Source: Escherichia phage PhiR41_1. From it: DNA of 64,000 nt. A program made the translations under genes and the position numbers. Shown here piece after piece: positions 59,925-61,700 of this stretch. A model generated the notes under the pieces. It had not been told where the DNA came from. It saw only the letters and a program-made list of their open reading frames with translations, and made no database searches. Position 1 is the stretch's first letter; each line of letters starts with the position of its first letter. The stretch lies in sequence record PV340561; one strand, written 5' to 3'.

Positions 59925-60373
59925 CACCGCTGACAGCATACTTAAGACATTGCATGAATAATGTGTACCGGTATGGGTATAACCAGAACAAAATTACCGC
60001 TGGCAGCATACGAAGGTCTGACATATGCCATTAATTACCGCTGATAGCATATCCAAACAAAAATTCCTCAATAAAACACCGCTGACAGCATACGTTCTAT
60101 CAGGGAGCAGCAGGCAATAAATACCTTTCACTACAAGTAATCAGCGCAATGGGAATAGAATGTTAGTGAGCGCAAACCTATATGGAATGCACTCTTCGAG
60201 GTTAGTAACCACTGGGGAGGTATAAAAGAGCATTGAGTGGTGATAGATGATTTACCGCTCACAGCATACGTTTATCTCACTATACCGCTGGTAGCATATC
60301 TTTAACCGTTCACAGCATACTTTTCAGAAAAATAGCCGCTGATAGCATACATTTCACCGCTGACAGCATATCA
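59925..60373. repeat. array of nine about 17-bp iterons (consensus ACCGCTGACAGCATAC) downstream of rep; incA-like copy-control locus
   Basis: Nine direct copies with 1-3 mismatches at about 59925, 59995, 60035, 60078, 60252, 60283, 60304, 60334 and 60356. Confidence 0.8.
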
Positions 60374-61465
60374 AAGCAGTTTGAGACTATTGGAAAGGAT
60401 CTCAATCATCTTGATATTTTCAGGCGTCAAATTCTGCGAAAGTTCGGTTATCTTGTTGATAATGTTCTGTTTGGCATCAATTTCCCCAGCTTTCTCATCT
60501 GGTTTTTTGGGTTCGATGTCTTCAGGTTTTGGCGGTGCGACTTTGAGTTTTGGATTGCGGCTGTGAATCTGGATATAGATCGACCGCCCACGCTTAATCT
60601 CGCTGTATTCGAGATAGCCCAAATCTTGGAGAGCTTTTAAGCCGTTACGTATAGTCTGATTCTGCGAGCTGACATTCCTGCTACTCAAATTGAGTCGCGC
60701 ACGCAATCGAGCAAGCGATACCGGCGCAGGCTTGGTTGGAAGACTTTCGATGAAGGTGTACAGAGCCTGTGCTGTTTCTTTGCGTGGTAGCTTATTGATA
60801 ACCTTTAACTGCAAAAGAACCTTATGGTCAAAGCGATATAGTTCGGCCAGCTTCGGTTCTGCATAGAACACCACCGTATCTTTCTGCTCGTTGTAGTCCA
60901 CGCTATTGATGAGGTGCACCATCAGAAGCGAGATCTTGTTAGAGCCGTCGACGTTCTTTTCTTCATACGTTCTCTGGAAAGACAGAGTTGTACGCATGAT
61001 CTTCAAAAGACTGTTTGTAAGCCGGTCGCGGAGTGTTTTGCGGATCTGTGACGATGGATAGCCACAAAACTTCGCAAATTTCGTGATGCTTAACTCGACA
61101 CGACCATTAGGTTCGCCGTATTCTGCCAGCGAACGCACAACGCCCACCCACGTTTTGAAATCATGATCCATGTCGAGACGAGGACCGGTTATCTTGATAT
61201 CGGAATAGCCTTCAGAACGGGCTACTTCGAGCTGGACAAGCTCCTTTGAAGCATCGATCTCATTTGGCTTGTTACGTTTACTGTATTTTGTTCCCTTAAG
61301 CGTGGGGACGAACAACCCCAGTCGCATCAACGCAATTGGTTGGACTGTATTGTTGCTATTAGGGACAAGTTCCCCTGTGTACAATTCAAGGGAACCTTCT
61401 TCAAAGTTGTCGATGTTATCTTCTAATTCTTTGTTATTTTTACCTTTTTTATTTTTTGTGGACAT
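60371..61465 (-). CDS. repA: plasmid replication initiator protein (RepA-like, iteron-binding)
   Basis: Gene flanked on both sides by iteron arrays; likely start at ATG 61465 (MSTKNKKGK...); basic C-terminal region. Confidence 0.7.
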   Translation of the reverse strand: MSTKNKKGKNNKELEDNIDNFEEGSLELYTGELVPNSNNTVQPIALMRLGLFVPTLKGTKYSKRNKPNEIDASKELVQLEVARSEGYSDIKITGPRLDMDHDFKTWVGVVRSLAEYGEPNGRVELSITKFAKFCGYPSSQIRKTLRDRLTNSLLKIMRTTLSFQRTYEEKNVDGSNKISLLMVHLINSVDYNEQKDTVVFYAEPKLAELYRFDHKVLLQLKVINKLPRKETAQALYTFIESLPTKPAPVSLARLRARLNLSSRNVSSQNQTIRNGLKALQDLGYLEYSEIKRGRSIYIQIHSRNPKLKVAPPKPEDIEPKKPDEKAGEIDAKQNIINKITELSQNLTPENIKMIEILSNSLKLL

Positions 61466-61484
61466 GTGGACACCTTTGTCATTC

Positions 61485-61587
61485 AACCGCTGACAGCATA
61501 CTTGATTTGCCGCTGACAGAATACCAAAAACAGTTGGCAGCATACGGTGAACCGCTGACAGACTATCAATTACCGCTGACAGCATAC
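61485..61587. repeat. five iterons (one degenerate) immediately upstream of rep; origin/incC-like region
   Basis: AACCGCTGACAGCATAC, TGCCGCTGACAGAATAC, a degenerate copy, AACCGCTGACAGACTATC and TACCGCTGACAGCATAC. Confidence 0.75.
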
Positions 61588-61626
61588 ATGAACATGGCTT
61601 CAGACCAGTCGTGGCGCGGCTTACAG

Positions 61627-61700
61627 CGATCGGGGATCTTATTTGATCTATACAAGGATCTATCTATGGATCTCTTTATTAGGATCTATCCTGTGGATAT
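61627..61700. promoter_or_regulatory. GATC (Dam-site) cluster plus DnaA-box-like TGTGGATAT; candidate origin of replication
   Basis: Six GATC in about 60 bp (61627-61685) and TGTGGATAT at 61692-61700, adjacent to the iterons. Confidence 0.6.

Follow-up and report, generated by a model that had tools for sequence, protein, structure and literature searches.

The DNA of Escherichia phage PhiR41_1 (sequence record PV340561) raises the question of whether this element is maintained as a plasmid and, if so, by what kind of replicon. We analysed a stretch of 64,000 nt, referred to here as the window, to which all positions refer. Between positions 59,925 and 61,700, a minus-strand rep gene lies between two arrays of short direct repeats (iterons), next to a cluster of GATC sites. 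A reading of the sequence alone had compared this layout with the plasmid replicon of P1 and had proposed that the element replicates as a low-copy plasmid. We put the probability at roughly 0.9 that the region is the plasmid-prophage replicon of a phage-plasmid of the SSU5/pECOH89 type, a homologue of the P1 oriR-repA-incA module that belongs, as judged from sequence, to the RepFIB / P1 RepA family. The replicon, which is typed IncFIB, is of an already known kind and recurs almost unchanged in hundreds of plasmid sequences; the understanding of iteron replicons in general is unaffected by it. What is added here is a precise map of the origin, a family norm of 12 rather than 9 downstream iterons, a probable rep start at 61465, and annotation errors in public records.

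The occurrence of the region bears on the proposal of a plasmid state. The segment is 99% identical to ~110-kb phage-plasmids of E. coli and Shigella, e.g., p09EL50 (E. coli O104:H4), and also to records deposited as 'Escherichia phage CMS-2020a', and 36 PLSDB plasmids carry the region at 99% identity. Among complete E. coli genomes, the region was present in 205 of 5426, on a plasmid in every case and at no chromosomal place. This plasmid-only occurrence fits maintenance as a plasmid.

Initiator, iterons and origin core

The sequence-only reading had named P1 RepA and the RepFIB-type initiators as the proteins with which to compare Rep, and both turned out to be homologous. BLASTP aligned Rep with P1 RepA at 46% identity (E 4e-86) over residues 20–284 of the 286 in RepA, and Rep is ~50% identical to RepFIB-type initiators found on more than 5000 plasmids. 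Pfam identifies a Rep3_N (WH1) domain (3.6e-9) and residues 11–310 match phrog_775 (6.9e-133); NCBIfam holds no model that fits Rep, nor one that fits P1 RepA. By these matches, Rep is a Rep_3-family (WH1) initiator of the P1 RepA / RepFIB family. It is 78 residues longer than P1 RepA, with 12 extra residues at the N-terminus and a 55-residue C-terminal extension (residues 310–364, encoded at 60371–60538) that is absent from P1 RepA and lies outside phrog_775; matches to FIB initiators end near residues 307–309. The extension consists of a Pro/Lys-rich linker followed by a likely terminal helix ending in LTPENIKMIEILSNSLKLL. The tail of SSU5 RepA is unrelated and acidic, has a similar length, and closes with a similar helix motif, LSKEELAILEELRKA.

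With up to three mismatches, the 16-mer ACCGCTGACAGCATAC matches the window 15 times, always on the plus strand, whereas dinucleotide shuffles give an expectation of 0.24 and none of 100 shuffles reached 15. Nine matches lie downstream of rep, starting at 59926, 59996, 60037, 60078, 60254, 60284, 60305, 60335, and 60356 (span 59926–60371), and five lie upstream, starting at 61486, 61509, 61530, 61551, and 61572. Nine iterons beyond the 3′ end of a minus-strand rep gene and five before its start is what had been reported from the sequence alone, and both the counts and the position of rep between the arrays held up. The fifteenth match, with three mismatches at 54998, falls within a conserved gene ~5 kb away and is probably due to chance.

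The upstream set, hereafter the origin iterons, leaves 20 nt between its last copy and the rep ATG. Close E. coli-type loci in which the array is covered have the same count and spacing, barring copies too degenerate to match, and so does the Klebsiella type. The nine downstream copies are all direct, are oriented as the origin set, and fall into blocks of five and four, the first copy overlapping the rep stop codon by 1 nt. When E. coli-type and Klebsiella-type sequences were compared, 89% of the iteron columns (128/144) but 50% of the spacer columns (23/46) were conserved (Fisher p = 1e-7), and the spacing was kept. In the 23 IMG/VR E. coli-type relatives that span the iteron-free segment dividing the downstream array, the iterons on its two sides start 175 or 176 bp apart; the segment is not conserved in the Klebsiella type. 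It has the 10-mer TATCACCACT in common with the P1 repA leader, and it shows a marginal similarity to SSU5 (E 6e-4) that we left uninterpreted.

Beyond the origin iterons, six GATC sites start at 61628, 61635, 61645, 61657, 61669, and 61683. They had been described as lying within 60 bp and indeed occupy 59 bp, which makes them the densest cluster of the window (the runner-up has three sites in 65 bp). The window-wide Poisson expectation for six sites in 65 bp is ~0.03, and 0 of 300 shuffles reached six. AGATCC heptamers account for four of the sites, and the other two read AGATCA and CGATCG. The A+T-rich stretch that contains them is presumed to be the region of unwinding and of methylation/SeqA sensing. 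Next to the cluster, the sequence-only reading had seen a single DnaA-box-like site. This site is real: TGTGGATAT at 61692–61700 corresponds to ATATCCACA on the rep strand and has one mismatch to TTATCCACA. It is not single, however, as a second, abutting box had been overlooked; this box, TTATTCACA at 61700–61708, fits the relaxed consensus TTWTNCACA exactly and has one base in common with the first. On the other side of the GATC cluster, the G+C-rich spacer of the origin core contains an 11-mer, GCCGCGCCACG, that recurs unchanged in P1 oriR and the Klebsiella relative.

The rep start annotated in public records differs from the one used here. PGAP calls a protein of 404–405 residues that begins with an ATG at 61585, which lies within the first origin iteron. 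The additional 40 codons (61466–61585) are iterons read in frame, because the 21-bp spacing preserves the frame and each iteron contains an ATG. Homology to P1 RepA and a Shine–Dalgarno sequence, AAAGGTG at 61471–61477, make it probable that the true start is the ATG at 61465 and not the annotated one at 61585. This ATG is straddled by two weak, overlapping DnaA-box-like 9-mers, GTGTCCACA and ATGTCCACA (61457–61473, minus strand), with two mismatches each. They overlap by one base, as do the two strong boxes at the outer end of the origin, and the pair aligns with CTATCCACA, a box-like sequence of the P1 repA leader. In P1, DnaA boxes are present at the repA-leader end too.

Features of the replicon region, with coordinates in the 64,000-nt window
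Feature	Coordinates	Strand	Description
Hairpin	59887–59910		Nine base pairs, six of them G-C; resembles a terminator on either strand; outer limit of the replicon
Distal control iterons	59926–60093	−	Four direct copies; spacing 41, 41, 70 bp
Iteron-free spacer	60094–60253		160 bp; divides the downstream array
Proximal control iterons (incA-like)	60254–60371	−	Five direct copies; spacing 21, 30, 21, 30 bp
rep	60371–61465	−	364 aa; ATG at 61465, stop TGA at 60373–60371
Origin iterons (incC equivalent)	61486–61587	−	Five direct copies of GTATGCTGTCAGCGGT (rep strand); spacing 21, 21, 21, 23 bp
G+C-rich origin-core spacer	61588–61626	−	Holds GCCGCGCCACG at 61610–61620
A+T-rich stretch	61627–61691	−	64% A+T; six GATC Dam sites; homologous to the P1 oriR Dam sites, of which five are annotated
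Tandem DnaA boxes	61692–61708	−	Outer end of the origin; aligned with the annotated DnaA site of P1 oriR, TTATCCACATTATCCAC

Relation to the replicons of P1, RepFIB plasmids and SSU5

The P1 reference was a curated record whose annotation covers oriR, the DnaA site, the Dam sites (five), the incC iterons (five, with PrepA lying within them), repA, and the nine incA iterons. In rep orientation, the origin core outside the iterons aligns base for base with P1 oriR. The DnaA boxes and the first heptamer read TTATTCACA-TATCCACAGGATAGATCC in the window and TTATCCACATTATCCACTGGATAGATCC in P1, and the end of the GATC cluster together with the G+C-rich stretch reads AGATCCCCGATCGCTGTAAGCCGCGCCACGACTGG and AGATCCCTGATCGTTGCAGGCCGCGCCACGTCTGG, respectively. 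The two cores share GCCGCGCCACG, the tandem DnaA boxes, and the Dam heptamers (AGATCC). Cronobacter phage JK004 and the Klebsiella relative have this core as well, and SSU5 has two copies of it. Both replicons have five direct origin iterons at a two-turn spacing (21-21-21-22 in P1 incC and 21-21-21-23 in the window). In both, the final base of the rep stop codon is also the first of the control array, the point at which iteron 9 of P1 meets the repA stop, and in both the host element is a phage-plasmid. The Rep identity, the origin-core alignment, and the iteron geometry lead us to regard the resemblance as true homology.

The proposal that nine plus five copies mirror the incA/incC organisation of P1 therefore stands as far as homology is concerned, in Rep (46%), the oriR core, the spacing, and the stop-codon junction. 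It does not stand for the count, which is not shared by descent as the norm is 12 + 5, nor for the architecture of the downstream array. P1 incA is one block of three direct and six inverted copies, whereas the copies in the window are all direct and split 5 + 4 by 160 bp, and the family norm is 12 downstream copies against nine in P1. The window has six GATC sites where P1 has five. In P1, incA is directly followed by parAB-parS, whereas the par genes of the window are 30 kb away and encode a small ParA.

The iterons themselves also differ. Those of the window and of P1 (GATGTGTGCTGGAGGGAAA) have little in common beyond a TGCTG core, and we found no match to the P1 iteron with up to three mismatches anywhere in the window. 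Judged by its iterons, the replicon is not IncY, the type of P1, although it appears to work like that of P1, and its incompatibility specificity is expected to be different.

RepFIB, the replicon of the IncF plasmids P307, F, and pO157, is the other known system with a similar initiator (~50% identity). In RepFIB, origin iterons with a DnaA site precede rep and control iterons follow it (PMC11983097). The downstream block of FIB replicons alone displaces a resident plasmid and the upstream block does not, which is consistent with handcuffing (PMC11983097). The replicon of the window differs from RepFIB in that its carrier is a non-conjugative phage-plasmid and in that Rep has a C-terminal extension beyond the FIB matches.

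Within phage-plasmids, p09EL50 and pECOH89 have the same replicon (99% DNA identity to p09EL50), and the Klebsiella IncpKPHS1 type has the same iteron sequence and a Rep that is 85–87% identical. Merely four iterons downstream of repA were reported for IncpKPHS1 (PMC6735626). The replicon of SSU5 is different, with a Rep of 49% identity, the iteron CCACTGTAGAGAGTA, and a duplicated origin; no SSU5-type iterons were detected in the window within four mismatches. The three proteins encoded at 59666–59878, 59331–59666, and 61787–62431, which flank the replicon, are 74–94% identical to those of SSU5. These identities mark the initiator-plus-iteron module as a cassette that has been swapped or diverges fast, whereas the backbone around it is conserved. 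Divergence of the module in such a backbone fits a diversification of incompatibility specificity, and it would let related phage-plasmids coexist. Because its iteron sequence differs from both, the replicon should be compatible with P1 and with SSU5.

The duplication in Salmonella phage SSU5 (JQ965645, positions 1750–2400) is a tandem one with a 375-bp period and comprises the oriR core and the iteron set upstream of repA, so that two upstream sets of ~5 and 6 iterons are present. In the rep-proximal copy of the origin, one DnaA box is gone and so are several GATC sites. The downstream array of SSU5 has ~14 iterons in both orientations.

The window sequence contains what defines a replicon of the P1 RepA / RepFIB family, i.e., a homologous initiator, origin iterons, a downstream control array, and a core with DnaA boxes, Dam sites, and a G+C-rich stretch. 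Homology and geometry predict how replication, copy control, and incompatibility would work. By analogy with P1 and RepFIB, Rep monomers would bind the five phased origin iterons and host DnaA would bind the tandem boxes, and the two proteins would jointly open the A+T-rich, GATC-rich stretch lying between. Full Dam methylation of the six GATC sites would permit opening, whereas hemimethylation after firing would lead to sequestration and block immediate re-initiation. Rep on the origin iterons would repress its own promoter. The nine downstream iterons would titrate Rep and pair with the origin iterons (handcuffing), with incompatibility and the predicted low copy number as the result.

Several observations weigh against this assignment. 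Pfam finds no WH2 domain in Rep above threshold, although the WH2 of P1 RepA is itself merely marginal, and no homologue of solved structure was found for Rep by sequence at E ≤ 1. The downstream array is unlike incA in its orientation and split, as described above. A consensus scan detected no sigma-70 consensus promoter on the rep strand in the iteron region. The rep promoter must be located in or next to the origin array, because the ATG follows the last iteron after only 20 nt and the gene upstream is transcribed divergently. The best candidate is an extended −10 element alone, TGGTATTCT at 61518–61526, which arises through a G-to-T variant in the fourth origin iteron. Finally, the element encodes its own Pol III alpha and DnaB-like helicase, and its dependence on host factors may for this reason differ from that of P1.

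Around the replicon, the annotation of p09EL50 lists tail genes, dnaE, a DnaB-like helicase, ligase, nrdA, an integrase, and a toxin–antitoxin pair. With replisome genes of its own (dnaE, the DnaB-like helicase, ligase, and nrdA) and a Rep tail that P1 RepA lacks, the element could use the module as an origin for lytic, virion-producing replication, either instead of plasmid maintenance or in addition to it. A large control-iteron array is, however, a copy-limiting design, and the homologous module of P1 is a plasmid origin, lytic replication of P1 proceeding via a separate replicon. Moreover, initiators with ~50% identity to Rep are found on thousands of conjugative IncF plasmids that have no phage genes. 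A lytic role is improbable on this evidence, and the plasmid-prophage replicon is the reading we prefer. It is also unlikely, if slightly less so, that the Rep tail (residues 310–364) acts as a docking peptide by which Pol III alpha or the DnaB-like helicase encoded by the element itself is recruited; if it did, replication in plasmid mode would be partly independent of the host replisome.

Nine and twelve downstream iterons

When aligned with p09EL50, the window is without 87 bp that bear three iterons. The junction of the deletion lies inside the 16-mer at 59926–59941 (region 59911–59941), which is identical at both ends of the lost piece, and the counterpart of this piece is found at ~6019–6105 in the compared stretch L001. 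In close E. coli-type relatives, three further iterons are present beyond 59926. Upstream and downstream counts are 5 and 12 in p09EL50, 5 and 9 in the window, and 5 and 8 in Klebsiella phage pJN2-26, the iteron sequence of which is that of the window.

The extra 87 bp were present in all of the 22 best PLSDB matches and in all of the 30 best matches among complete E. coli genomes. IMG/VR contains no match to the deleted junction, whereas 24 of its contigs have the undeleted one; those that span the array in full all have 12 downstream copies, with hardly any variation in spacing. As the 24 loci were picked by the undeleted junction, their uniform 12 is not an independent sample; the independent evidence consists of the 0-versus-24 contrast and of the top 30 E. 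coli and 22 PLSDB matches. Since the close E. coli-type relatives examined carry 12, we consider 12 + 5 to be the norm of this replicon and the nine copies shared with P1 to be a coincidence.

The deletion looks like the outcome of slippage or recombination between identical iterons, and it may also be an assembly collapse. In P1-type replicons, a reduced number of incA control iterons is expected to raise the copy number somewhat and not to abolish replication. By analogy, the loss of 87 bp may be real and a natural copy-up allele of the phage-plasmid, and the missing three iterons are a minor candidate cause of an altered copy number. Such an allele would be relevant where phage-plasmids modulate gene dosage.

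That the deletion occurs in no close relative examined could also mean that the replicon is a decaying or inactive remnant, in which the loss of three iterons is erosion and another replicon maintains the element. The rep open reading frame is nevertheless intact and 99.7% identical to the rep of complete plasmids, and neither the origin nor any of its five iterons is damaged. Loss of control iterons would, from the behaviour of P1 incA, be expected to raise the copy number and not to stop replication. In addition, the annotation of p09EL50 shows no second plasmid initiator in the part examined, which corresponds to most of the window. We therefore regard a remnant as very unlikely and an active plasmid replicon with a shortened control array as the better description.

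Carrier element and neighbouring sequences

The carrier is a member of the SSU5/pHCM2/pECOH89 phage-plasmid family. Both pECOH89 and p09EL50 have been described as SSU5-related phage-like plasmids with identical RepA (PMC3999498), and the SSU5 supercommunity is typed IncFIB (PMC7969092; PlasmidFinder; also bioRxiv 10.1101/2025.09.12.675607). For annotation, the value of the assignment is that the window can be marked as part of an extrachromosomal phage-plasmid of the SSU5/pECOH89 type. At the outer limit of the replicon, the hairpin ends the converging plus-strand gene at 59666–59878. There were no tRNAs in the window, and Rfam gave nothing at E ≤ 1 within 59000–62500; RNA-based copy control was dropped as a candidate, as no known RNA family is present in that region.

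A ParA-like ATPase of 222 residues (phrog_164) is encoded at 29154–29822 and is accompanied by a partner gene of 119 codons, the pair spanning 29154–30181. The two genes are followed at 30187–30217 by a perfect 12-nt inverted repeat, ATGCATTGGCGC-N7-GCGCCAATGCAT, which may serve as a centromere or as a terminator.

Centromeres can take the form of repeat arrays close to maintenance genes, and in P1 parS lies just beyond incA. A partition site was the alternative function that the sequence-only reading had named for the repeats, which would then form a parS-type array for a ParB-like protein. The ParA-like gene and its partner are, however, 30 kb from rep and have no iteron copy near them. Furthermore, the repeats occur on both sides of rep, at the positions and with the spacing of the iterons bound by P1 RepA. 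We have rejected the partition-site reading as extremely unlikely and retain the repeats as iterons of the replicon.

Public records leave the origin, the rep start, and the control array of this replicon unannotated or mislabelled, with the rep start placed inside the iterons and iterons entered as attL/attR. The latter labels stem from the GenBank record of Klebsiella phage pJN2-26 (MZ779062), in which 20-bp direct repeats on either side of rep, at 1333–1352 and 2603–2622, are given as attR and attL. That the repeats are phage attachment or recombination sites has next to no probability, as the two labelled repeats belong to a set of 13 iteron copies, the element exists as a circular plasmid with no chromosomal occurrence, the integrase gene is far away, and the label resembles the output of an automatic prophage finder; iteron copy number and plasmid state decided the rejection. 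The attR and attL labels of pJN2-26 are almost certainly an artefact of such a program, and the sequences that carry them are two iterons flanking rep.

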